The position numbers were made by a program, and so were the translations under genes. The notes under the pieces are model-generated. The model saw only the letters and a list, made by a program, of their open reading frames with translations. It was not told the origin of the DNA and searched no databases. A stretch of 32,000 nt of DNA from Dickeya solani IPO 2222 (GTDB lineage Bacteria > Pseudomonadota > Gammaproteobacteria > Enterobacterales > Enterobacteriaceae): contig NZ_CP015137.1 of assembly GCF_001644705.1 (NCBI RefSeq), positions 3,630,001-3,662,000 of the forward strand, written 5' to 3'. Positions 4,737-31,298 of the stretch are shown one piece after another. Within the stretch, counting starts at the first letter, position 1, and each line of letters begins with the position of its first letter.

Positions 4737-6002
4737 TCAGGATTGGGGCTGTAGTGACGAGGGAGAGGAAAGCGGGTTTACGGCTCTGGTCCGCTGGCGG
4801 TGCAACGTGTTGCCGACCATCATCATGGTGACAAACAGAAACAGTCCGGGTGAAAAGTAGCCATAGCCGCGCAGGAAAAATTCGACCGCGTAGGCGATCA
4901 CCACCGCCATGGCGATTTTCAGCAGCGTTGATTCCATATCGGTGTTATCGCGGATACGGTTGATGGTGTTGACGGCTTTTTTCAGGATAAACAGGTAGCC
5001 GACACTGAGCAGCAGGCCGACGGCGCCGAATTCGCTGACGATTTTCGAGGCCAGGAAGCCGCCGTCGTTACGGTTGAAATCGCTGCCGGCGAGCGACTGG
5101 ATGACGTAGCCGTATTGGCCGACCCCATTGGTGCCGGCCATTTGCAGCCCCAGCCCGAGGCCGTGACTTTCCAGCAGCGCGTTTTTGGCGTCATCCAGCC
5201 CTTGCAGGAATACCAGCGTAGTGAGGTTGTCGGTATCGTCGCTGATGGTCAGGCGCGACCCAAAGTAGGCGATAGCCGGCAGGTCGGAAAAGTAGGTCAG
5301 CATGAAATACACCGACGCGACCAGCACCACGATAATCGTCAGCATCAGGGTAATGCGCCGCGCCATCCAGAAGATGAAAACCGCCATCATGCAGAACACC
5401 AGCAACGTCAGGCTGGGGAAAATCAACGCCTGTAACAGCAGGTTTGCCAGCAACACCACGCGTTCCCGGTTTTTCATCAGAATGCCGCTGGCGCAGACAA
5501 AGATACCGACCGTCAGAGCGTAATGGCTCTCTTCGGAAAAGGGAAATACCGCCTTGGGTTTCGCAACGTAACTACCGATATCAATGCGATGGATGACCGA
5601 GATCCAGCCGAGCAACAGCAGGGTATAGGTGACGGCCCGAAAAACGGAGGCGAGGGTGGCGGGTGGCACCGTCAACAGGCGGTTGGAAAATAGCGTGGCG
5701 CCAAGAAAAATAATAATCAGCGCCGGCAACGTGAAGAGTGGTTTGTAATTATCATAAAATGCAGCGATATAACCGGATTGTGCCAACAATATAAATACTG
5801 CTATCGAAAAAAGTAAGATTTTTCCACTGGAAAAGGTCAATTTCTTCATGCATCTCAAGCCATAAATATAGATAGCAGTGATGGCGACCATCATGCCCGG
5901 CGCCAGCGAGGATTGCTGGAGAAATACAAACACAAACTGTGGTATCAGGAAAATGCAAAGCATTGCCCAATAAAGAGAATTATGTTTTATGGTTGCCTTC
6001 AA
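4737..6002 (-). CDS. Polytopic membrane protein, O-antigen ligase/polymerase-like (Wzy_C-type)
   Basis: 421 aa, hydrophobic throughout, with roughly ten or more predicted membrane-spanning segments. Contains a larger loop GLGLGLQMAGTNGVGQYGYVIQSLAGSDFNRNDGGFLASKIVSEFGAVG that resembles the Wzy_C/WaaL loop. The track start at 6002 is a TTG codon; an alternative ATG lies at 5963. The 5' third is visibly AT-rich. Confidence 0.6.
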   Translation of the reverse strand: MKATIKHNSLYWAMLCIFLIPQFVFVFLQQSSLAPGMMVAITAIYIYGLRCMKKLTFSSGKILLFSIAVFILLAQSGYIAAFYDNYKPLFTLPALIIIFLGATLFSNRLLTVPPATLASVFRAVTYTLLLLGWISVIHRIDIGSYVAKPKAVFPFSEESHYALTVGIFVCASGILMKNRERVVLLANLLLQALIFPSLTLLVFCMMAVFIFWMARRITLMLTIIVVLVASVYFMLTYFSDLPAIAYFGSRLTISDDTDNLTTLVFLQGLDDAKNALLESHGLGLGLQMAGTNGVGQYGYVIQSLAGSDFNRNDGGFLASKIVSEFGAVGLLLSVGYLFILKKAVNTINRIRDNTDMESTLLKIAMAVVIAYAVEFFLRGYGYFSPGLFLFVTMMMVGNTLHRQRTRAVNPLSSPSSLQPQS

Positions 6003-6201: not shown

Positions 6202-7704
6202 ATGAATAGAAGAGATTTCCTGGCCGGCAGCCTGGCATCGCTGGCGGTGACCTCGACGGCATCGGCGTCGCAGGAGAATAATGCGATTGCATTTACCAAT
6301 GATCTCAGCCGTTACGATATTGATTTTTCCGGAAAGAAAGATTCCACCGGGCCTTTTCAGACACTTCTTAATGATATGTTGGAACAGTCAAAGTCTTTAT
6401 CGAATGCCCAGCAAAAGGTCAGGTTAATGTTACAAGGCGTGGTTCAGGTTTCTTCCACAATAAAAATAGATGCATCAAAAGTTTCTATTCATGGTCCGCT
6501 GACAATTATTTTTACCAAAAATGGTAATTTCGATAAATATGCGGTTGTGGTTACCGGGAACCCGGATGTGGATGCCGCCTACAGCAATATTGTGGACAGT
6601 TTTTTTTCCGGTGTGCATTTTATTTCTGAAAAGAGAACGTTAGATCTGTTTTTTGCGTATAACCCGGAAAACAATTCCAACCGCAATGCGTCCTGTCTGT
6701 TGAGCATTTATTCCTGCCGTTTTACCGGGTTCAGAAAAGTCTTTTCCAACGGTGCGGGCGGCTGGGGCTGGAACTGGTTCTCCTGCGGGTTCAATAACTG
6801 TGACCGCCTGTTGTACCTAACCCGCCAGCCGGATTCCTACGAGCGCTTCACCTTCATCGGCTGTATCTGGCAAAACGGCGGGTACGCTTTTGAAATCGAT
6901 AATCCGGACGGCGTGGTGTACTGGCAGGCGGGCAGCTTTGATTACTGTGAGGGGATCGCGCTGATTAACGAAGGGCATGTGGAGATCAACGGCCACGTCG
7001 AGTACGTGAGGCGAAAGCAGCCCGCCGTGGTGCTCAGGAAAAAGAACGCCAGCTTTGTGTTCAACGGCGGAGCGATATTTGTGCGTCAGAATCCAGAACA
7101 GCCTTACCTCATTTTCGATCAGGCGTTTGATTATCAGACCACGCTGAACAACATTCGCTTTGCCACCGATGGCATCAATGTGACTTCTTGCGTGATATCC
7201 AACCGCCCTTGCTGGAAAAACAACCTGATTTTTACCAATCAGATGGCGGAGCTGATTGCCCTGAACGACAGCGGCAGCACGCTGGTTTATCCCGGCGCCG
7301 CCGGTTGCGCCAGTCGTTACGACCCAGCGCACATCAAAGAAGATAACGGGCGGTTTGTGAAAATCGCCGAGGGCGATAACGTGCAGGTACAGTTCCTGAT
7401 ACCGATCAACGGACACGATCAAATCGGGGTCACCTGGCAGGCGCAAACCTCCGTCGCCGGCAAGGTAGCGATTACCAAAAAGCTTCATGGCTACGGCGAA
7501 AACGGTCCTGGTCCGGTAATGATGGACCTGACCCGCGACGGCAAAGACTACATTCAGAGTAGCGATCGATTGCAGAAGGGCAGTTCGGGCACTATCTGGA
7601 AAATTCCGCGCAGCGCCTGGCTGCTTGCGCTGTCGTTCAATCTCTCCACCGCCAGCGTCGGCGACTATCTGGATATGCGCGAACTGAAGCTGGTCAGTTG
7701 CTGA
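6202..7704 (+). CDS. Tat-signal secreted protein, possibly a right-handed beta-helix polysaccharide-active protein (WcaM-like architecture)
   Basis: Twin-arginine signal MNRRDFLAGSLASLAVTSTASAS, with a GGAG SD sequence at 6190-6193. The N-terminal pattern YDIDFSGKKDSTGPFQTLL...VQVSSTIKIDASKVSIHG resembles the start of pectate-lyase-3/tailspike-type beta-helices. The function is inference only. Confidence 0.6.
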   Translation: MNRRDFLAGSLASLAVTSTASASQENNAIAFTNDLSRYDIDFSGKKDSTGPFQTLLNDMLEQSKSLSNAQQKVRLMLQGVVQVSSTIKIDASKVSIHGPLTIIFTKNGNFDKYAVVVTGNPDVDAAYSNIVDSFFSGVHFISEKRTLDLFFAYNPENNSNRNASCLLSIYSCRFTGFRKVFSNGAGGWGWNWFSCGFNNCDRLLYLTRQPDSYERFTFIGCIWQNGGYAFEIDNPDGVVYWQAGSFDYCEGIALINEGHVEINGHVEYVRRKQPAVVLRKKNASFVFNGGAIFVRQNPEQPYLIFDQAFDYQTTLNNIRFATDGINVTSCVISNRPCWKNNLIFTNQMAELIALNDSGSTLVYPGAAGCASRYDPAHIKEDNGRFVKIAEGDNVQVQFLIPINGHDQIGVTWQAQTSVAGKVAITKKLHGYGENGPGPVMMDLTRDGKDYIQSSDRLQKGSSGTIWKIPRSAWLLALSFNLSTASVGDYLDMRELKLVSC

Positions 7705-22388: not shown

Positions 22389-22413
22389 AGCCCCGCCCTG
22401 AACGGGCGGGGCT
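22389..22413. terminator. GC-rich hairpin between the convergent lactonase and dps genes
   Basis: Stem agccccgccc / gggcggggct with a 5-nt loop. No U-tract. Confidence 0.5.
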
Positions 22414-22435
22414 GTGATGAGACGTCAGGCCGGGG

Positions 22436-22921
22436 TTATTTCAGGTAGGCGTTGAACATCCAGATCTGTTTTTCCTGTTCTTTGATGTAATCGGTCATCA
22501 GCGACGCGGTGCCTTCATCGCTGGCGTCTGCCACCAGCGTCAGGATTTCCCGCTGTTGTTGCAGCAGCACGGCGTAACCGGCCAGCAACCCTTCCAGCGT
22601 TTTTTTGCCGTCGGTGGCGTTGACGTCTTCTTTGATGTCCGCCACGTTCAGGTAGTCGCTGTAGGCATGCAGCGGTTGTCCGCCCAGCGCCAGAATACGT
22701 TCCGCCAGTTCGTCGATTTTCAACAGTAGTTCGTTGTAGATTTCCTCAAACTTGGCGTGAAGTTCGAAAAAGGCCACACCGGAAATGTTCCAGTGATAAC
22801 CGCGCACATTCATGTAAAGAATCTGGTAGTTGGCCAGCAATGTGTTCAGTTTGGCGGCAATCTTTTCAGACTGCTGCACATCCAGGCCGATCGGGCTCTT
22901 TTTCTTTTTACTGCCTGACAT
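22436..22921 (-). CDS. dps: Dps-family ferritin-like DNA-protection protein
   Basis: 161 aa. KLNTLLANYQILYMNVRGYHWNISGVAFFELHAKFEEIYNELLLKIDELAERILALGG is a typical Dps ferroxidase region. AAGGAG SD sequence before the ATG at 22921. Confidence 0.9.
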   Translation of the reverse strand: MSGSKKKKSPIGLDVQQSEKIAAKLNTLLANYQILYMNVRGYHWNISGVAFFELHAKFEEIYNELLLKIDELAERILALGGQPLHAYSDYLNVADIKEDVNATDGKKTLEGLLAGYAVLLQQQREILTLVADASDEGTASLMTDYIKEQEKQIWMFNAYLK

Positions 22922-23181
22922 ATAACGCTCTCCTTTCTGTCAATCGCGTGTTGGTTCGCCATGAACATCAGTCCGGCATGTGCTCGTTTGCCGGGCAACG
23001 TGACGGCCTTTTCATCATAGACCAGAAACATGGACCAGAAACCACTGTCCCAACTCCACCGGGTGGACTGGTTCACCCTTTATAAAACGATTCTGTGAAT
23101 AAACGTTTGCGGCGTATCAATTTTTTGAAGCCGCGCACCTCCGGACTCCGGCGTGTGGCTACCGGATGGTGCGCGGCGGGG

Positions 23182-24075
23182 TCAGGGCAGGTGGTCCATA
23201 AACTCGCCGACCACCGCCATGCAGGCGGCGCGCTCTTCCACATGCGGCATGTGGCTGGAGTGCTTAAAGATCACCCATTCGCTGTTTCGGATGCGATCGG
23301 CGAAGGGTTGCACCACTTCGGGGGCCGCTTCATCGTATTCGCCGGATATCAGCAAGGTCGGCACATCGATGGCGTGGAGGTGCTCGATGATGCACCAGTC
23401 TTTCATGGAGCCGATGACGTGGAACTCGGTCGGCCCGTTCATGGCGTGGTAGACGGTCGGATCGTCGTCCATGGCCGCGAAGGTGCGCTTCACCTCGTCC
23501 GGCCAGGGATCAAGCCGACAAACATGGCGCTGGTAGAATACCTGACTGGCGGCGCGGTAGGCGTCGCTGTCCAGTGTGCCTGCCTGTTCGTGAGCCAGCA
23601 GCGTAGCCTGTACCTCTGGCGGCAGCGCGGCGCGCAGCCGGGCGGCGGCGGACAGCCACAGCGCCATAGAGGCGGGCGAGTTGGCAATCACCAGCCCCTG
23701 TAGCCCAGCCGGTTGCCGCACGGCGTGTTCCGCCGCCAGCATGCCGCCCCACGATTGCCCCAGTAAGGCATAGCGCTGTGCGATGCCAAGATGGCGCAGC
23801 AGGTTGTCGAGCTCATCCAGAAACAGCGCGACCTGCCAGAATCCGGCCGGCTTGTCGCGCAAATGGGTAGAGCGGCCGTTGCCGATCTGATCGTAATGGA
23901 TCACCGCCCGGCCGGTTTGGGCGAGATCGCGAAAGGCGTCCACGTAGTCGTGGGTGCAACCAGGACCGCCGTGCGCCACCACCAGCGGCGTCAGCGGCGA
24001 GGCGAGATCGCCGCAGACCCGATACCAGGTCTGGTACTCGCGAAAAGGGGCATACCCCTCACAGACGTTATACAT
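23182..24075 (-). CDS. pip: Proline iminopeptidase (alpha/beta hydrolase, PipA-like)
   Basis: [15 protein letters not shown], oxyanion HGGPG, nucleophile elbow GQSWGG, C-terminal HMPHVE. Start uncertain: ATG at 24075 (AAAGG upstream), 24093 or 24162. Confidence 0.85.
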
Positions 24076-24402
24076 AACGCATACCTTTTTCATGATGGAC
24101 TGGCACACGCTACCGCCGACGCATGGCGGTGAATAGCTAGCAAAAATACGAGGTTGTACCATGACGGCAGGATGCGTCTAAATAACGAGGATTTGTCGAG
24201 AGGACATTATCCGTATTTCTCTGTTAATCGGAACTACATTGTTTTTCATCAATGATTTTATTATTTACCCATTGAGTATTATAGGTTTATATCCATATAT
24301 TTTTCCATTCTGATAGATTGTATTATTCATACCGGTTTATTTATCCGCACATTATCGGTTTTTATATTTATTAAAATGATATTAATGGGATTTTAGAAAA
24401 TC

Positions 24403-24738
24403 ATGCCAAATCCTTTTACGGCGTCATGGAGCCGGAACGGTAATCTTTTGTGTCACGGTCACTGGATCATTCATTATCTGGAGCGTGAGTTTGAATTACC
24501 GGAGAAATACCGTGAACAGCATCTGGCAACGCTGGGTATTTATTCGGTGATTGATCCGGATGACGAGCTCTATCGGGATGGGCTGGATGAAGATGACTGG
24601 ATTCTGGAAAACGTCGACTGGCTGGCGGACTGTTTCGAATTGCACCAGGTGCCGATTGAAGAGGATTATTTCCGCTTTTTTTATCAGGCCGTCAATCCGC
24701 ACGACTGGCGCTGCACCAGCTGCGCCGGGTGTATGTGA
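24403..24738 (+). CDS. Hypothetical very acidic 111-aa protein with N-terminal CHGH and C-terminal CTSCAGCM
   Basis: Intact ORF with enteric-like codon use (ctg, ccg, gat). By my count, 22 Asp+Glu versus 7 Arg+Lys. Lower GC than its neighbours, preceded by about 240 bp of AT-rich DNA, and no strong SD sequence. No family recognised. Confidence 0.55.
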   Translation: MPNPFTASWSRNGNLLCHGHWIIHYLEREFELPEKYREQHLATLGIYSVIDPDDELYRDGLDEDDWILENVDWLADCFELHQVPIEEDYFRFFYQAVNPHDWRCTSCAGCM

Positions 24739-24755
24739 CGGTGCAGAGACGTGCG

Positions 24756-25628
24756 TTACAGCAGGCGGTAATGCATCGCCCGCACCACCGCCTGTACGCG
24801 ATTGCTGGCGCCGAGCTTACGGGCGGCGTTGTTGAGATGCAGGTTGACGGTCGCCAGCGAGCGATGCAGTTTCCGGGCGATCTCTTTGGCGGTCAGCCCT
24901 TCCGCCGACCAGGCCAGACACTCCTGCTCGCGCGGGCTGAGATGCACATGGCGACAGTGATACCAGGCTTCGTCGAACAACGGGAACACGTGCTCCTGGA
25001 AGGTGTGCGCCAGTAGCCCAATACGCGCCAGCACCGTCTCAATCTCGTTGTCGGTATCAAGCCCGGTGTGGATGGCGGTGACGGTGACGAAGCCGCCTTT
25101 GGGCAGATGCAGCGGCACCGTGACGCCACACCGCATATTGTGGTTCTGCATATAGTGAGATACCGGGCGATGCTGTTCGTTCAGCACCCGGCGCAGCGAG
25201 GTGTTCTCCGGCCGACAGTAGGACCAGGTGAACGGCGCGCAGCTGTCGAGGGCGTGGATCTGTACCGGGTCGACCTGATAGTAACCGCTCTGGCACCATA
25301 GCGACACCATGTCATCCGGCACATTGTGGGTGCGCAGTAGCGAAGGGGTGATCAACTCGCCTTCCAGCGAGCGCGGGACCGGCGTGTAGTCGTAAATCAG
25401 CGCGTCAAATCCCAGTTGCCGCACATCGTCGTACAATTGCCCGAAGGCGGGTTCAAACGCCGCCGCGCCGCGATGGCCACTGTCATGGACGGCAAGCCGG
25501 GCGGCGGTTTCTCCGCAAATGGCGACGTTCCTGCTTGCAGATGTTTTTCCGCTCACGGCTATTCTCCCACCTACGGCTATTTTTTCGCTCATGGCTATAT
25601 TTTCGCTCACGGCTGTCCTCCCGGTCAC
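24756..25628 (-). CDS. LuxR-family solo regulator of the plant-associated-bacteria (PAB) subclass (XccR/OryR/PipR-like)
   Basis: C-terminal HTH LTAKEIARKLHRSLATVNLHLNNAARKLGASNRVQAV. Autoinducer-binding-type domain with MVSLWCQSGYYQVDP...PFTW, giving M at TraR position 57, W at 61, and D70/P71/W85 retained. Start ambiguous: GTG at 25628, GTG at 25610, ATG at 25592, or GTG at 25556 (the last preceded by GGGAGA). Confidence 0.85.
   Translation of the reverse strand: MTGRTAVSENIAMSEKIAVGGRIAVSGKTSASRNVAICGETAARLAVHDSGHRGAAAFEPAFGQLYDDVRQLGFDALIYDYTPVPRSLEGELITPSLLRTHNVPDDMVSLWCQSGYYQVDPVQIHALDSCAPFTWSYCRPENTSLRRVLNEQHRPVSHYMQNHNMRCGVTVPLHLPKGGFVTVTAIHTGLDTDNEIETVLARIGLLAHTFQEHVFPLFDEAWYHCRHVHLSPREQECLAWSAEGLTAKEIARKLHRSLATVNLHLNNAARKLGASNRVQAVVRAMHYRLL
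25503..25628 (-). repeat. Degenerate 18-bp tandem array (5 clear units, up to 7) at the 5' end of the luxR solo ORF
   Basis: Minus-strand units resemble ATAGCCGTGAGCGAAAAT. They translate to MTGRTA VSENIA MSEKIA VGGRIA VSGKTS (ASRNVA ICGETA). Confidence 0.8.
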
Positions 25629-25917
25629 GGTGCTGATAACGACAACCCCCGACGTTTATTGCCTGAATTAATGCAATTTGGGTGCCAGTTGGCGGCGCGC
25701 AAAAACTAGCATTTCTACTAACTACCCAGCGCGGTGAGCGACCGTTAGCGTAAATACCAGTGCCGGATTAAGGCGGTGTTAATAGAGGTTTTTATGCGCC
25801 AGTGTCACGACGATCGCGCTGTTGTTCCCCGCCGGTGTTATTGCGCCGTCCCGGCCCCGATAACGCCGGCACCGGGCAGAGTGCACTGTTTGTGTGCAGC
25901 ACGGCGGGGGAAATAAC

Positions 25918-26856
25918 ATGCACCGTTACCGTTTTTTATTGCTGCGTCCGTTGCAGATGCTGCCGGTGCTGTTCGGCATCAGCCTGATCACTTTTCTGCT
26001 GGTGCGAGCCATTCCCGGCGATCCGGCGCGTCTTCTGCTGGGCATTCGCAGCACGCCGGACGCCATCGCCCGCATTCGCGCCCAGTACGGTCTGGATGAG
26101 CCGATCTGGCTGCAGTATTTCTACTTTCTGCGCAATCTGCTGCGCGGCGAAATGGGGCGCTCTATCGTCTACAAGATCGACACCCTGCCGCTGGTGGCGT
26201 CACGGGTGGAGCCGACGCTGCTGCTGGTGCTGGGCAGTGTGCTGATTGCCCTGCTGCTGGCCGTGGTGCTGGCGACGCTGGCAGTCCGTTATCACGGCGG
26301 GCTGACGGATCAGATTATTCGGCTGGTGTCCACCGCCGGGCTGGGGTTTCCCGCGTTCTGGCTGGGGATCATGCTGATCCTGCTGTTCAGCCTGCGGCTG
26401 GGCTGGTTTCCGGTGTCGGGTTATGGCAGCAACTGGGCCGAGCGGCTGCACCACCTGTTCCTGCCGTGCCTGACGGTGGCGCTGGCGTTATCGGCGGTGC
26501 TGACCCGCAACTTGCGCGTCAGCCTGCTGGCGGAGCTAAAAAGCGATTACGTGGTGGCGGCTTGCGCTCGTGGTCAGCCGGAGCGGCGGATTTTCTGGCG
26601 ACACGTGGTGCCGAATTCGCTGGTGCCGACGCTCAACCTGCTGGCGGTGAATATCGGCTGGCTGATTGGCGGCACGGTGGTGATCGAAAGCGTGTTTGCG
26701 TTACCCGGCATGGGACAACTGCTGGTTCGGGCGATTTTCAGTCGTGATTACATGGTGGTGCAGGGGGTAGTGATGCTGTTTGCCGTCGCCACCGTGACGG
26801 TCAATCTGCTGGCCGACCTGCTGACGGTGGCGCTTGATCCGAGGATTCGCTTATGA
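25918..26856 (+). CDS. Peptide/nickel-type ABC transporter permease (DppB/OppB-like)
   Basis: MHRYRFLLLRPLQMLPVLFGISLITFLLVRAIPGDPA is a typical DppB N-terminus. Six predicted membrane-spanning segments. Start placed at 25918, after a GGGGG run. Confidence 0.9.
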   Translation: MHRYRFLLLRPLQMLPVLFGISLITFLLVRAIPGDPARLLLGIRSTPDAIARIRAQYGLDEPIWLQYFYFLRNLLRGEMGRSIVYKIDTLPLVASRVEPTLLLVLGSVLIALLLAVVLATLAVRYHGGLTDQIIRLVSTAGLGFPAFWLGIMLILLFSLRLGWFPVSGYGSNWAERLHHLFLPCLTVALALSAVLTRNLRVSLLAELKSDYVVAACARGQPERRIFWRHVVPNSLVPTLNLLAVNIGWLIGGTVVIESVFALPGMGQLLVRAIFSRDYMVVQGVVMLFAVATVTVNLLADLLTVALDPRIRL

Positions 26857-27707
26857 ACCGGACTGTTTCCGCCGTCTTCACGCGCTTCACCCCGGCGCTC
26901 TGGCGGCCTCGCCAGCCGGCGCTGTTGGCAGGCATGGTGATTCTGCTGTGCTGGGTTCTGGTGGCGCTGCTGGCGCCGTGGGTAGCGCCGTTCGACCCGA
27001 TAGCGCAAGACCCGTCGGTCAGCCTGCAACCGCCGGGCGGCACCCATCCGTTCGGCACGGACAACTACGGCCGCGACATCTTCTCCCGCGTGATATGGGC
27101 CAGCCGCATCGACCTGCAAATCAGCCTGTTGGGGGTGGTGTTCCCCTTTTGCATCGGCACGCTGCTGGGTGCGCTGTCGGGTTACCTCGGCGGCCTGACC
27201 GACACCCTGGTGATGCGGGTGATCGACGTGGTATTGGCGTTCCCGTTTCTGGTGTTGATGCTGGCCATCATCGCGGTGCTGGGGCCGGGGCTGCTCAGTT
27301 TCTATATTGCTATGGCGATGGTGGGCTGGGTGTCCTACGCCCGGCTGGTGCGCGCGCAGGTGCTGACGCTCAGGCAGCGTGACTACATTCTGGCGGCCCG
27401 TAGCCTGGGCTACAGCCACTGGCGGGTGTTGTTCATCCACCTGTTGCCGAATGCGCTGACCAGTTCGCTGGTGTTTGCGATGTCCGACTGCGTGCTGGTG
27501 TTGCTCAGCGGCGCAGCCATCAGCTATCTCGGTTTGGGGGTGCAGCCGCCGCTGGCGGAGTGGGGCGTGATGGTGGCGGAAGGGCAGAGCTTTATTACCA
27601 CGGCATGGTGGATGACCACCTTTCCCGGACTGGCGATCGTACTGCTGGCGATGGGCTTCAGCCTGCTGGCGGATGGGCTGGGCGAACGACTGGGAGCGCG
27701 ACCATGA
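26853..27707 (+). CDS. Peptide/nickel-type ABC transporter permease (DppC/OppC-like)
   Basis: APWVAPFDP...HPFGTDNYGRDIFSRVIWASR is a DppC hallmark. ATGA overlap with the previous gene. Confidence 0.9.
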   Translation: MNRTVSAVFTRFTPALWRPRQPALLAGMVILLCWVLVALLAPWVAPFDPIAQDPSVSLQPPGGTHPFGTDNYGRDIFSRVIWASRIDLQISLLGVVFPFCIGTLLGALSGYLGGLTDTLVMRVIDVVLAFPFLVLMLAIIAVLGPGLLSFYIAMAMVGWVSYARLVRAQVLTLRQRDYILAARSLGYSHWRVLFIHLLPNALTSSLVFAMSDCVLVLLSGAAISYLGLGVQPPLAEWGVMVAEGQSFITTAWWMTTFPGLAIVLLAMGFSLLADGLGERLGARP

Positions 27708-28705
27708 CTCGACTGAATGTAAACGGATTGCTGAAGGTAAACGGACTGACGCTGGAGAATCGTCAGGGGGTCCGGCTGGTGGACGCGGTTTCCTTTTCTT
27801 TGCAGAAAGGCGAAATGCTGGGGCTGGTGGGGGAGTCCGGCTCCGGCAAGACCCTGACCTGCCGGGCGCTGATGCGGCTGTTGCCGGGGGAAGGACTGCG
27901 CATCGCCGCTGGCGAGGTGTGGCTCAACGGTCAGGATGTGATGCAATTGAACGACGCGCAGATGACCAACGTACGCGGACGGCAACTGGGGATGATTTTT
28001 CAGAACCCCGCCAGTCACCTCAATCCGGTGATGACCATTGGCGAGCAGATCGCTGAAAGCCGCCGCCTGCATTTCGGCCGTAGCCGTCGCGCGGCACGCG
28101 ATGAAGCGGTCGCGCTGTTGCAACAGGTCGGCATCCCCGACCCGGTACGACGGGCCGGCAATTATCCGCACGAGTTTTCCGGCGGTATGCGTCAGCGGGC
28201 GATGATCGCCGTGGCGCTGGCTTGCGAGCCGCAGATTCTGATCGCCGACGAACCGACCACCGCGCTGGACGTTACGGTGCAGATGCAAATCCTGCGGCTG
28301 CTGGCGCAACTGCGTGAACAACTGGGCATCGCCATCATCATGATCACCCACGATTTGGGGGTAGTGGCGCAGACCTGCGACCGCATGGCGGTCATGTACG
28401 GCGGCCGTTTGTGCGAACTGGGCGATAAGCGGGCGCTGCTGTCTTCGCCGCGCCACCCTTATACCCGCGCGCTGATTGCGTGCCAGCCGATGCAGGCCGG
28501 CGGCAGCGGACCGTTGCGCACCTTGCCCGGCCAGCCGCCGCTACCGGAGCAGTTCGGCGACGGGTGCCGGTTTGAGCCGCGTTGCGCGCGGGCGGGCGAA
28601 CGCTGCCAGCGTCAGGCGCCGCCGCTAACCGGGGCCCCTGACGACGCGGCGCGACAACTGGCGTGCCATTACCCGCTGGCGGAGCAGGAAGGAGAAGCCG
28701 GATGA
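27704..28705 (+). CDS. ABC transporter ATPase (DppD/OppD-like)
   Basis: Walker A GESGSGKT, signature [12 protein letters not shown], Walker [12 protein letters not shown], and a C-terminal oligopeptide-type Cys motif. ATGA overlap; start at 27704, not the track start at 27560. Confidence 0.9.
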
Positions 28706-29793
28706 ACGGGATAAGATACCCGCTGTTGGAAGCGGAAGAGGTTGATGTCACGTTCCCGGTATCGGGCCGCTTTCCCTGGCAGAAACGCGAAGTGCGGGCG
28801 GTCAACGGCGTCAGTTTGCAGATTGCTCCCGGCGAAACCCTCGGGCTGGTGGGCGAGTCCGGCAGCGGTAAAAGCACGCTGGGCCGCGCCTTGCTGCAAC
28901 TGGAGACGTTAAAACACGGCCGGGTGCGTTTCAACGGCATCCCGGTCAGCGATGGCTTGCATAGCGACGTGGCCCGGCTGCGGCAGGAAACGGCGATGAT
29001 TTTTCAGGACCCGTTCTCCTCGCTCAATCCGCGCCAGACGCTGTTCCAAAGCATCGCCGAGGTGCTAAAGGTCCATAAACGGCTATCGCCTGCGGCTACC
29101 GTCGAGCGCGTCAACCAGTTGCTGGCGATGGTGGGGTTGCGGCCGGAGCACGGCCGGCTCTACCCGCATGACCTGAGCGGCGGGCAGTGCCAGCGCGCCG
29201 GGATTGCCCGCGCGCTGGCGCTGGAACCGCAACTGGTGGTGGCGGACGAGTGCGTGTCGGCGCTGGATGTGTCGATTCAGGGGCAGATTATCAACCTGCT
29301 GATGTCGCTGCGCGCACAGATGGGGCTGGCGATGATCTTCATCGCCCACGATCTGGCGGTGGTGCGGCGGCTGTGCGATCGGGTGGCGGTCATGTACCTC
29401 GGGCGCATCGTGGAGGAAGGCCCGACCGAAGCGGTGTTCAACCAGCCGCAGCATCCCTACACCGCCGCGCTGATTAGCGCCATTCCCGATATTGATCCTA
29501 ACCGTCCGCTGCCGGCGAACGGCCTGATAGGCGAGCCGCCCAGCCCGCTGGCGCTGCCGCCCGGCTGCGCGTTTCATCCACGCTGTAGCCACGCCGTTGC
29601 CGCGTGTCGGCAACAGTCACCGTCATTACAACAGCAGGAACACCAGCGAGTCGCCTGCCTGCGCGCCGGAGAGTGGCAGCAGGCTGGCGCGTCGGTGTCC
29701 GCATCCGATGTTATTGCCGCACCAGGGACTGTTTCACCACCCATAACCATACCCACTTTATCAACAGGGGAGTCGTGCCATGAAAATAGATAA
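28702..29793 (+). CDS. ABC transporter ATPase (DppF/OppF-like) with a C-terminal extension of about 40 aa
   Basis: Walker A GESGSGKST, signature LSGGQCQRAGIA, Walker B VVADECVSALD. ATGA overlap with the previous gene. The tail overlaps the SBP gene by 14 nt. Confidence 0.9.
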   Translation: MNGIRYPLLEAEEVDVTFPVSGRFPWQKREVRAVNGVSLQIAPGETLGLVGESGSGKSTLGRALLQLETLKHGRVRFNGIPVSDGLHSDVARLRQETAMIFQDPFSSLNPRQTLFQSIAEVLKVHKRLSPAATVERVNQLLAMVGLRPEHGRLYPHDLSGGQCQRAGIARALALEPQLVVADECVSALDVSIQGQIINLLMSLRAQMGLAMIFIAHDLAVVRRLCDRVAVMYLGRIVEEGPTEAVFNQPQHPYTAALISAIPDIDPNRPLPANGLIGEPPSPLALPPGCAFHPRCSHAVAACRQQSPSLQQQEHQRVACLRAGEWQQAGASVSASDVIAAPGTVSPPITIPTLSTGESCHENR

Positions 29794-31294
29794 ACGCAAT
29801 GTGGCGACCGCTGGCGTGCTGCTGGCGCTCAGCCTGGTCAGCGAGCTGGCGCAGGCGGCCGGGATTCTCACCATCGGACGGCGTGAGGACAGCACCACCT
29901 TCGACCCGATTAAGTCGGCGCAGAACGCCGATAACTGGGTGTTTTCGAACGTGTTCGACGTGCTGATCCGGGTGGATAAAACCGGCACGAAACTGGAGCC
30001 GGGGCTGGCGCAGAGCTGGACGGTGTCGCCGGACGGTAAGGTGTACACCTTCACGCTGCGCGAGGCGCGTTTTTCCGACGGCTCGCCGGTGACGGCGCAG
30101 GACGCCGTGTTCAGCTTGACCCGTATCCGCGACAGCAAGGAGTCCTTGTGGCGTGATTCTTACAGCATCATCGACAAGCTGGAGACGCGGGATGCGCATA
30201 CGCTGGTGGTGACGCTGAAATCGCCTTCCGCGCCGTTTCTGTCGCAGCTGGCGTTGCCGAATGCCTCCGTGTTGCCGGAGAAAGTCGTCAGCAGTCTGGG
30301 TGAAGAAACCTTTGCCGAGAAGCCGATCGGCTCCGGGGCGTTTGTCATTACGTCCTGGGCGCGCGGCGACAAGATTGTGCTGGCGAAAAACCCCTATTAC
30401 TGGCAGGCGGACCACGTCAGCCTGGACGGGGTGGAGTGGCAGACGATCCCAGACGACAATACCCGTATGCTGAAAGTGCAGGCCGGCGAGCTGGATGCGG
30501 CGCTGTCGGTGCCGTTCTCACGTCTCGTGTCGCTGCAGAAAGACCCCAACCTCAAGGTGGCGCTGGACCCGTCCACCCGTGAAGACAGCTTGCTGATTAA
30601 CCATTCTCATGGGGTGCTCGGCAAGGTAGAAGTGCGCCAGGCGCTGGATTATGCGATCGATAAAAGCGCCATCGTCAAGACCGTGACGTTTAACTATGGC
30701 ACGGTCGCCAATTCTTACATTCCCAAAGGCGCGCTCTATTACTACGCCGACAACCTGCAACGCCCGTATGACCCGGAAAAAGCCAAACAGATGCTGAAGG
30801 CGGCGGGCGCATCCGATCTGAAACTGAATTATGTGGTCAACGCCGGGGATGAAGTGGACGAGCAAATCGCCGTGCTGCTGCAACAGCAACTGGCGAAAGC
30901 CGGGGTTACCGTTAATCTGCAAAAGGTCGACCCCAGCCAGAGCTGGAGCATGCTGGTGGCGGGCGATTTTGACGTGTCGGTGAATTACTGGACCAATGAC
31001 ATTCTGGACCCGGATCAGAAAACCACCTTTGTGCTCGGTCACGACAGCAATATGAACTACATGACCCGCTACCAGAACGACAAGGTCAAGGCACTGGTTG
31101 CCGCCGCGCGGGTGGAACTGGATCCGAAAAAGCGTGAGCAGATGTATATCGACTTGCAGAAGATGGCCAAAGACGACGCCAACTGGATCGATCTCTACTA
31201 CAGCCCGTACCGTAATGTGACGCGCAAGAACATCAGCGGTTTCTACCAGAACCCGCTGGGGCGTTTCTTCCTCGAAGATACGGTGAAGGGGTAA
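29780..31294 (+). CDS. Family-5 (peptide/nickel type) periplasmic substrate-binding protein
   Basis: Signal peptide MKIDKRNVATAGVLLALSLVSELAQAAG. 504 aa with SBP_bac_5-like sequence (FTLREARFSDGSPVTAQD, YYWQADHVSLDGVEW). AGGGGAG SD sequence. Confidence 0.9.
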   Translation: MKIDKRNVATAGVLLALSLVSELAQAAGILTIGRREDSTTFDPIKSAQNADNWVFSNVFDVLIRVDKTGTKLEPGLAQSWTVSPDGKVYTFTLREARFSDGSPVTAQDAVFSLTRIRDSKESLWRDSYSIIDKLETRDAHTLVVTLKSPSAPFLSQLALPNASVLPEKVVSSLGEETFAEKPIGSGAFVITSWARGDKIVLAKNPYYWQADHVSLDGVEWQTIPDDNTRMLKVQAGELDAALSVPFSRLVSLQKDPNLKVALDPSTREDSLLINHSHGVLGKVEVRQALDYAIDKSAIVKTVTFNYGTVANSYIPKGALYYYADNLQRPYDPEKAKQMLKAAGASDLKLNYVVNAGDEVDEQIAVLLQQQLAKAGVTVNLQKVDPSQSWSMLVAGDFDVSVNYWTNDILDPDQKTTFVLGHDSNMNYMTRYQNDKVKALVAAARVELDPKKREQMYIDLQKMAKDDANWIDLYYSPYRNVTRKNISGFYQNPLGRFFLEDTVKG

Positions 31295-31298
31295 GGTT

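Follow-up and report, generated by a model that had tools for sequence, protein, structure and literature searches.

Introduction

LuxR solos of the plant-associated-bacteria (PAB) type are a main route of host sensing by plant-associated bacteria, and in Xanthomonas and Dickeya zeae pip genes contribute to disease as virulence factors. Here, we describe a locus in a 32-kb stretch of Dickeya solani DNA (the window, in which all coordinates are counted) that holds a proline iminopeptidase gene (pip), a gene for a LuxR solo (pipR), and a divergent five-gene operon for an ATP-binding cassette (ABC) importer. The source is D. solani, as the open reading frame (ORF) of the solo is 100 % identical to an NCBI LuxR-family protein of that species. 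With high probability, the locus is the Pip system of D. solani, that is, a PAB LuxR-solo signalling module of the OryR/PipR type. D. solani is a potato pathogen of importance, and work on its virulence and on signal identification could reasonably be directed at the locus.

Systems of this type have been described in several genera. In Pseudomonas sp. GM79, PipR activates pipA via an inverted repeat, reported to be centred at -71.5 upstream of pipA, and needs the Aap transporter (PMC4981722). Feedback of the peptidase on the signal was shown in the same strain (PMC4981722). The compound HEHEAA is an established ligand for GM79 only. OryR and XccR of Xanthomonas activate pip and respond to plant compounds, not to acyl-homoserine lactones (AHLs) (PMC10134790, PMC4981722). 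Among enterobacteria, PsrR of Kosakonia KO348 affected colonisation of the rice root endosphere (PMC7301841). The luxR-solo system of D. zeae MS2, consisting of pipA/pipR and genes for an ABC-type peptide transporter, was characterised by Feng et al. in 2019 (PMC8860905, PMC9452768); the MS2 findings given here and below are as summarised in these two papers. In MS2, pipA is under PipR control, and on banana a pipA deletion mutant is avirulent and a pipR deletion mutant is not (PMC8860905). IHF binds the pipR promoter in this strain (PMC9452768).

Dickeya is also listed among the PAB-solo genera in a 2023 survey (PMC10134790), and Table 1 of PMC8860905 gives a homologue (90 % coverage, 72.13 % identity) for six strains of D. 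solani, one of which is IPO 2222T. The Pip locus is thus already known, having been studied in D. zeae and Kosakonia and catalogued in D. solani. A preliminary description of the window, made from its letters alone, was mistaken in regarding such a unit as uncharacterised in an enterobacterial context (PMC8860905, PMC7301841). The additions made here are modest: a map of two operators, evidence that Dickeya has Pip loci at two independent positions, and the finding that the module is, unusually, divided around a resident gene. The split, the second Dickeya locus, and the 5' end of pipR are not mentioned in the literature covered here on Dickeya Pip loci.

Gene content and synteny

The seven genes of the Pip locus are all intact in the ORF translation of the window, at the coordinates that the preliminary description had given them (Table 1). 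The pip product scores 263.6 bits against TIGR01250 (proline-iminopeptidase family, cut-off 167.65), also matches PF00561, and contains the GQSWGG nucleophile elbow. It is 65-81 % identical to the products of solo-adjoining pip genes of 78 loci. The divergent operon encodes two BPD_transp_1 permeases, two ATPases with ABC_tran and oligo_HPY domains, and one SBP_bac_5 substrate-binding protein (SBP). The locus therefore has a type I ABC importer that is linked to and divergent from the solo.

The SBP is a close orthologue of AapF, the crystallised HEHEAA-binding protein of Pseudomonas sp. GM79 (PDB 7kz8/7kz9), with which it aligns at 760 bits and 68 % identity, ungapped over 479 residues (25-503 against 12-490), and its next PDB match reaches 178 bits only. 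No second peptidase gene of the aapA kind was found in the window, where only one pip-like gene is present; 51 of 81 related loci have two.

Synteny was tabulated by tblastn over 81 related loci, and residues were compared in 82 related solos. Relatives outside Dickeya came from a scan of genome contigs, which gave no Dickeya locus, and Dickeya loci were added by exact-protein look-up. An arrangement in which the solo precedes pip and a permease-permease-ATPase-ATPase-SBP operon diverges from it recurs in about 75 of the 81 loci, across Gamma-, Beta-, and Alphaproteobacteria. 

The preliminary description had linked pip to the solo without mentioning the gene between them. The linkage stands in that pip is downstream of pipR on the same strand. 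The two are not adjacent, however: 680 bp containing an opposite-strand gene for a 111-aa protein separate them, as compared with 70-140 bp in relatives. Its statement that the window has no luxI-like gene agrees with the domain scans, in which none of the window's large ORFs showed an Autoind_synth domain. The expI/expR pair of the genome is unlinked to the Pip locus (PMC8860905).

Table 1. Coordinates of the features of the Pip locus of D. solani in the window.
Feature	Position	Strand	Basis
Foreign segment 1 (pip with its operator and promoter)	23127..24224	.	blastn junctions against empty-site Dickeya loci L086-L089
pip / pipA, proline iminopeptidase-family hydrolase, 297 aa	23182..24075	-	TIGR01250, PF00561, GQSWGG
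Predicted -10 hexamer TAGCGT, pip promoter	24107..24112	-	21 nt downstream of pip operator; putative promoter function
PipR-type lux-box operator CCTCGTATTTTTGCTAGCTA	24134..24153	-	top match of position weight matrix, score 20.9
Resident 111-aa gene, uncharacterised PF27390 (PM0253) family, convergent with pipR, not a Pip component	24403..24738	+	homologue annotation, empty-site comparison
Foreign segment 2 (pipR and ABC genes)	24737-31297		blastn junction mapping
pipR-type PAB LuxR solo, maximal ORF of 290 aa	24756..25628	-	PF03472, PF00196, M57/W61/D70/P71/W85
18-bp variable tandem repeat, hexapeptide AVSxKx, in pipR 5' coding or leader region	25542..25614	-	TRF and reading of the sequence
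Second PipR-type operator ACTAGCATTTCTACTAACTA, in divergent pipR/ABC intergenic region, facing ABC operon	25705..25724	+	second match of position weight matrix, score 16.4
Predicted -10 hexamer TAGCGT, ABC-operon promoter	25746..25751	+	21 nt past second box; putative function
ABC permease, AapB-like, 312 aa	25918..26856	+	PF00528, PF19300; 66-82 % identity across related loci
ABC permease, AapC-like, 284 aa	26853..27707	+	PF00528, PF12911
ABC ATPase, OppD/DppD-like	27704..28705	+	PF00005, PF08352; ATGA start-stop overlap with preceding gene
ABC ATPase, OppF/DppF-like, 363 aa	28702..29793	+	PF00005, PF08352; equal length in D. dianthicola
Periplasmic SBP, AapF orthologue, 504 aa, Sec signal peptide	29780..31294	+	PF00496, E 1.7e-102

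The LuxR solo

The product of pipR contains the autoinducer-binding domain PF03472 (E 1e-22, 80.4 bits) and the DNA-binding domain PF00196 (E 3e-17, 62.4 bits), both above their gathering scores, as the scan suggested in the preliminary description was meant to establish. A gapless hidden Markov model alignment with LasR places M107 of the solo opposite LasR W60, which is W57 of TraR. In the same alignment, W111 lies opposite LasR Y64 (TraR Y61), D120-P121 opposite LasR D73-P74 (TraR D70-P71), and W135 opposite LasR W88 (TraR W85). The match to TraR (1h0m) begins at residue 111 of the query, which is residue 61 of the chain, and so its register agrees with that of LasR. These alignments bear out the earlier reading of M/W at TraR positions 57/61 and of D70, P71, and W85 as retained. 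The equivalent of G113 is the G in 'RCGVTVPLH', aligned with LasR, and in the helix-turn-helix the equivalents of E178, L182, and G188 are the E, L, and G in 'REQECLAWSAEG', with the required +4/+6 spacing.

Among the related solos, M57, W61, P71, and W85 were recorded in 82 of 82 and D70 in all but one, which has N70. Two Pseudomonas relatives (P0052 and P0072) have W, not M, at position 57. The preliminary description held that the pair W57M and Y61W defines all PAB solos including PipR; this is not so, because PipR of GM79 keeps W57, as do these two relatives.

The nearest relatives of the D. solani solo are pip-linked solos. Among the matches listed, other Dickeya solos are 89-93 % identical to it, those of Brenneria, Rahnella, Sodalis, Acerihabitans, Pantoea, and Kosakonia 62-72 %, those of Pseudomonas syringae/fluorescens 52-57 %, and those of Rhizobiales 41-53 %. 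The score against the SdiA model NF007561 is 52.1 bits (cut-off 350) and that against the TraR model 33 bits (cut-off 250). As it falls below the equivalog cut-off and has both W57 and Y61 of the AHL pocket replaced, the solo is most probably not an AHL-binding orphan of the SdiA type, in agreement with the earlier assignment.

Operators and predicted promoters

The solo-pip spacers of relatives hold a conserved 20-bp palindrome with the consensus CCTATCACTTTTGATAGCTG. A first regular expression for the operator gave no match, and a position weight matrix was used instead. The matrix was built iteratively from 27 non-identical boxes that precede pip in related loci and scanned over both strands of the full window. 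Exactly two sites stand out from the background (mean -30, standard deviation 9, third-best score 8.8); they lie upstream of pip and of the ABC operon, respectively.

The pip-side box is centred at -68.5 from the pip ATG at 24075, compared with -65 to -69 for enterobacterial boxes, and it is conserved in D. dianthicola. Its position bears on the start of pip, for which two other in-frame ATGs exist, at 24093 and at 24162 (maximal ORF). The ATG at 24162 is upstream of the operator and hence is not the start, and the position of the operator confirms the start at 24075 that had been assigned earlier. About 70 of the 81 related loci have a single strong further match at the position of the ABC-side box, and it always faces the operon of the transporter or of aapA; boxes on this side were outside the training set of the matrix, which consisted of pip-side boxes only.

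Both boxes of the window are followed, at an identical spacing of 21 nt, by the identical hexamer TAGCGT, and in relatives TAnnnT hexamers occur 20-21 nt past the box. The arrangement in the window is that of lux-type class II promoters, where the box overlaps the -35 region. Transcription is predicted to start near 24100 and 25758. Between D. solani and D. dianthicola the operators and the -10 hexamers are conserved, whereas the adjoining spacer is wholly diverged and unrelated.

The predicted 5' untranslated region of the ABC operon is about 160 nt long (25752-25917), and this leader might contain an additional regulatory element. The distance from the box to the permease start is about 204 bp in D. 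solani as against about 97 bp in Rahnella.

The operators were not picked out by a search for short-range inverted repeats. A scan of 23-26 kb for the sigma-70 consensus and terminators gave 2 promoter-like sites against 1.8 expected, a result that is uninformative for activator-dependent promoters. The map of two operators with a fixed promoter geometry is an addition of this work and offers precise targets for mutagenesis and electrophoretic mobility-shift assays.

A module split around a resident gene

The gene between pip and pipR belongs to the site and not to the module. In Dickeya genomes without Pip genes at this position, the order is dps, PF27390 gene, amn. By blastn, the native DNA of the window comprises 22391-23126, 24225-24736, and the part from 31298 onward, and its resident segment has 79 % nucleotide identity to the empty site. 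The possibility that the 111-aa gene is itself an insertion into the Pip module was rejected, as it is present at the empty dps-amn site of other Dickeya genomes. Its PF27390 label comes from precomputed annotations of homologues; the gene has no match in the local Pfam, NCBIfam, and PADLOC copies. The 'PM0253' family occurs in Enterobacterales and Pasteurellaceae, and in Pectobacterium the gene adjoins cinA-recA. The stop codons of the PF27390 gene and pipR are 17 bp apart. A 71-bp indel at the 3' end of the former distinguishes D. solani from D. dianthicola, and so the C-termini differ.

Apart from the split, the Pip parts of D. solani follow the canonical order and orientation. The split layout appears to be old and maintained, because D. 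dianthicola, D. dadantii, and D. fangzhongdai have the same one.

A second Pip locus in Dickeya

The D. oryzae assembly GCA_017897305.1 has a compact Pip locus (L082), with an 85-bp solo-pip spacer, at a different chromosomal site. The same assembly also has an empty dps-PF27390-amn site (L089). This implies that the genus Dickeya has two independently located Pip loci, as one assembly has the D. oryzae-type locus elsewhere while its dps-amn site is empty. A solo of the D. oryzae/zeae type (P0020) is 65 % identical to that of D. solani. The D. oryzae locus is flanked by GntR, M20 peptidase, and P5CR genes on one side and by a GGDEF gene on the other.

Given two Pip loci, results from MS2 should not be transferred uncritically to D. 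solani. It is conceivable, though rather doubtful, that the locus of D. solani, D. dadantii, D. dianthicola, and D. fangzhongdai forms a rearranged lineage, acquired separately, whose function differs from that of the D. zeae MS2 system. Such a locus may recognise another plant compound, for instance one that matters in dicot hosts like potato. Both the variable 18-bp repeat and a non-ATG start may tune the output of its PipR, and its pip may be transcriptionally insulated from pipR by the convergent resident gene.

The 5' end of pipR

The limits that the preliminary description gave for the solo are those of the maximal ORF, and in this respect they hold; position 25628 is, however, only the outermost of five candidate starts. 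These are GTG 25628 (290 aa), GTG 25610 (284 aa), ATG 25592 (278 aa), GTG 25556 (266 aa), and ATT 25520 (254 aa). The last corresponds to the family-typical length of 254 aa. At this position D. dadantii has ATG, D. solani ATT, and D. dianthicola CTT. A conserved GGAGGA Shine-Dalgarno sequence lies 5 nt 5' of the in-frame GTG at 25610. Identical D. solani solo sequences are annotated publicly as 254, 266, 278, 284, or 290 aa.

The region of the candidate starts contains a tandem repeat, which TRF reports at 25573-25614 (period 18, score 70) and in which four degenerate units can be read. D. solani and D. dianthicola differ by exactly one unit, and across the Dickeya proteins compared there are between about 3 and about 7 copies. 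The solo of D. dianthicola exists in forms of 283 aa and 301 aa.

Proposed mechanism and alternative explanations

Based on orthology and the conserved operators, it appears that the solo, the transporter, and pip of D. solani may act together in the following manner. The AapF-like periplasmic protein would capture a small, plant-derived, peptide-like compound, which the two permeases and two ATPases would import. In the cytoplasm, the compound would bind the PipR-type solo, in which two substitutions (W57M, Y61W) have remodelled the AHL pocket. The liganded solo would then bind the two 20-bp lux-type operators, each of which overlaps a predicted -35 region (box, 21 nt, TAGCGT), and thereby activate pip as well as the ABC operon, the latter amounting to positive feedback on uptake. 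The signal is probably degraded or modified by the Pip peptidase, and this would provide the negative feedback known from GM79. That the solo activates pip, that the transporter is required, and that the peptidase feeds back are points carried over from the literature on relatives and would apply here by analogy. Observed in D. solani itself are the gene identities, the key residues, the AapF orthology, the synteny, and the geometry of the two operators and their conservation. The functional identification of a plant-signal unit in the preliminary description is supported, and it is now stronger than a reading of the sequence alone, because an AapF orthologue, a three-part synteny in about 80 genomes, and PipR-type operators before both pip and the ABC operon have been added to it.

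Several points weigh against this identification. The D. solani-type locus, known from sequence, is only 72 % identical in nucleotides, at 90 % coverage, to the MS2 locus, and the solo, as stated above, is 65 % identical to the D. oryzae/zeae-type one. In MS2, deletion of pipA affects virulence and deletion of pipR does not (PMC8860905), and therefore pip has PipR-independent expression or roles. PsrR of Kosakonia, the one tested enterobacterial solo of the M/W type, gave no activation of pip by root macerate, ethanolamine, or HEHEAA (PMC7301841), and a close AapF homologue of another species does not bind HEHEAA (PMC10134790). Finally, as pipR has no family-typical ATG, its level of expression is uncertain.

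Small peptides might also be imported simply as food, with the solo sensing them and inducing the peptidase for their catabolism and no dedicated interkingdom signal being involved. The parts of the transporter score best against Opp, Dpp, Nik, and Gsi models, but all of their NCBIfam equivalog scores are far below the cut-offs. PipR of GM79 responded to peptone and to the tripeptide Ser-His-Ser, the latter being active at relatively high concentrations only (PMC4981722), and the MS2 pipR deletion was without a virulence defect (PMC8860905). Since the identified ligand of AapF, the orthologue of the SBP, is the non-peptide HEHEAA (PMC10134790), and since the link of the module to a remodelled LuxR solo is strict and its occurrence is concentrated in plant-associated taxa, such a nutritional operon is improbable. 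An orphan receptor of the SdiA, ExpR2, or QscR type, eavesdropping on the Dickeya ExpI signal or on foreign AHLs, would fit the PF03472 domain, the weak best NCBIfam match to SdiA, and the production of AHLs by Dickeya through ExpI (PMC8860905). It is extremely unlikely in view of the replacement of two of the six conserved AHL-pocket residues (W57M, Y61W), the 52 bits against an SdiA cut-off of 350, the remoteness of the AHL receptors in PDB (E 1e-12 to 1e-5), and the lack of response to AHLs in the tested members of the clade (PMC4981722, PMC7301841).

It is also very unlikely that the locus has become, in the D. solani clade, a remnant that is decaying or no longer functionally coupled, with pip maybe expressed independently of pipR. 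All seven ORFs are intact and have the same lengths as in sister species, and both operators and the -10 hexamers are conserved between species while the adjoining spacer has fully diverged. The split around the PF27390 gene, which would speak for uncoupling, is kept in four species and so indicates long-term maintenance. Likewise, the ATT of D. solani or CTT of D. dianthicola in place of the D. dadantii ATG at the family-typical pipR start, and the variable repeat in the 5' region, would suggest decay, but in-frame upstream starts with a good Shine-Dalgarno sequence are available. The dependence of MS2 virulence on pipA and not on pipR (PMC8860905) is a further point in favour of a remnant.

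Variation in the surrounding region

Several genes near the Pip locus vary among Dickeya species. D. dadantii (L090, 2262-2765) and D. fangzhongdai (L091, 2358-2861) have an extra gene for 167 aa, with no Pfam match, between the SBP gene and amn, and D. fangzhongdai has an ORF of 135 aa between the PF27390 gene and pip (L091, 10105-10512). Both are absent from D. solani.

Farther away in the window, two ORFs of 421 aa (4737-6002, - strand) and 500 aa (6202-7704, + strand), with no Pfam, NCBIfam, or PADLOC match, lie between yjbH and a MASE2-GGDEF gene in a patch of low GC content (0.45-0.52, compared with about 0.6 around it). The corresponding D. dianthicola region (L079), in which yjbH adjoins the GntR gene, has neither of them, and the patch may be a strain- or species-specific islet. 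Between a 170-aa gene and pgl, the segment 11221-20749 contains a short-chain dehydrogenase/reductase gene, a DUF535 gene, and a haem-uptake cluster (hemS, periplasmic binding protein, FecCD permease, ATPase, and TonB-dependent receptor). This block is missing at the corresponding position in D. dianthicola L079, and the neighbourhood is thus a variable region.

Comparison with known systems

The D. zeae MS2 system, from the same genus, resembles the D. solani locus in having a LuxR solo, pipA, and an ABC peptide-type transporter. The D. solani locus differs from it by the split around the resident gene and by the repeat-bearing 5' end of pipR. PsrR-pip of Kosakonia sp. KO348 shares with D. 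solani M/W at 57/61, an adjacent pip, a five-gene peptide-type ABC transporter, and the absence of aapA (PMC7301841). Kosakonia solos are 64-65 % identical to the D. solani solo, and the Kosakonia layout is compact.

PipR-PipA-AapABCDEF of Pseudomonas sp. GM79 likewise has a solo followed by pipA and a divergent type I importer with two transmembrane domains, two nucleotide-binding domains, and one SBP. Its transporter operon is headed by the second peptidase gene aapA, which the D. solani window does not have, and its PipR has W/W at 57/61 (PMC4981722, PMC7301841), whereas the D. solani solo has M/W. Because of this difference and of the unresponsiveness of PsrR to ethanolamine and HEHEAA, the ethanolamine-derivative signal of GM79, which the preliminary description had brought into its interpretation, cannot simply be transferred to the D. 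solani locus. Nor does 68 % identity of the SBP to AapF fix the ligand, as the close AapF homologue that does not bind HEHEAA illustrates. Together with the lack of aapA in the window, these facts mean that GM79 does not settle the ligand of the D. solani system.

OryR and XccR of Xanthomonas share with the D. solani solo the M/W substitutions and an adjacent pip with a lux-type box (PMC10134790, PMC4981722). The Xanthomonas loci have no linked ABC importer and instead have a gene for an APC-family transporter nearby (PMC4981722). The 120 closest homologues listed for the solo include none that is named as a Xanthomonas protein, and the relationship is therefore more distant. Across these systems, the substitution of Trp for Tyr61 is common to all described PAB solos, whereas that of Met for Trp57, the OryR/XccR/NesR/PsrR type to which the D. 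solani solo conforms, is not universal.

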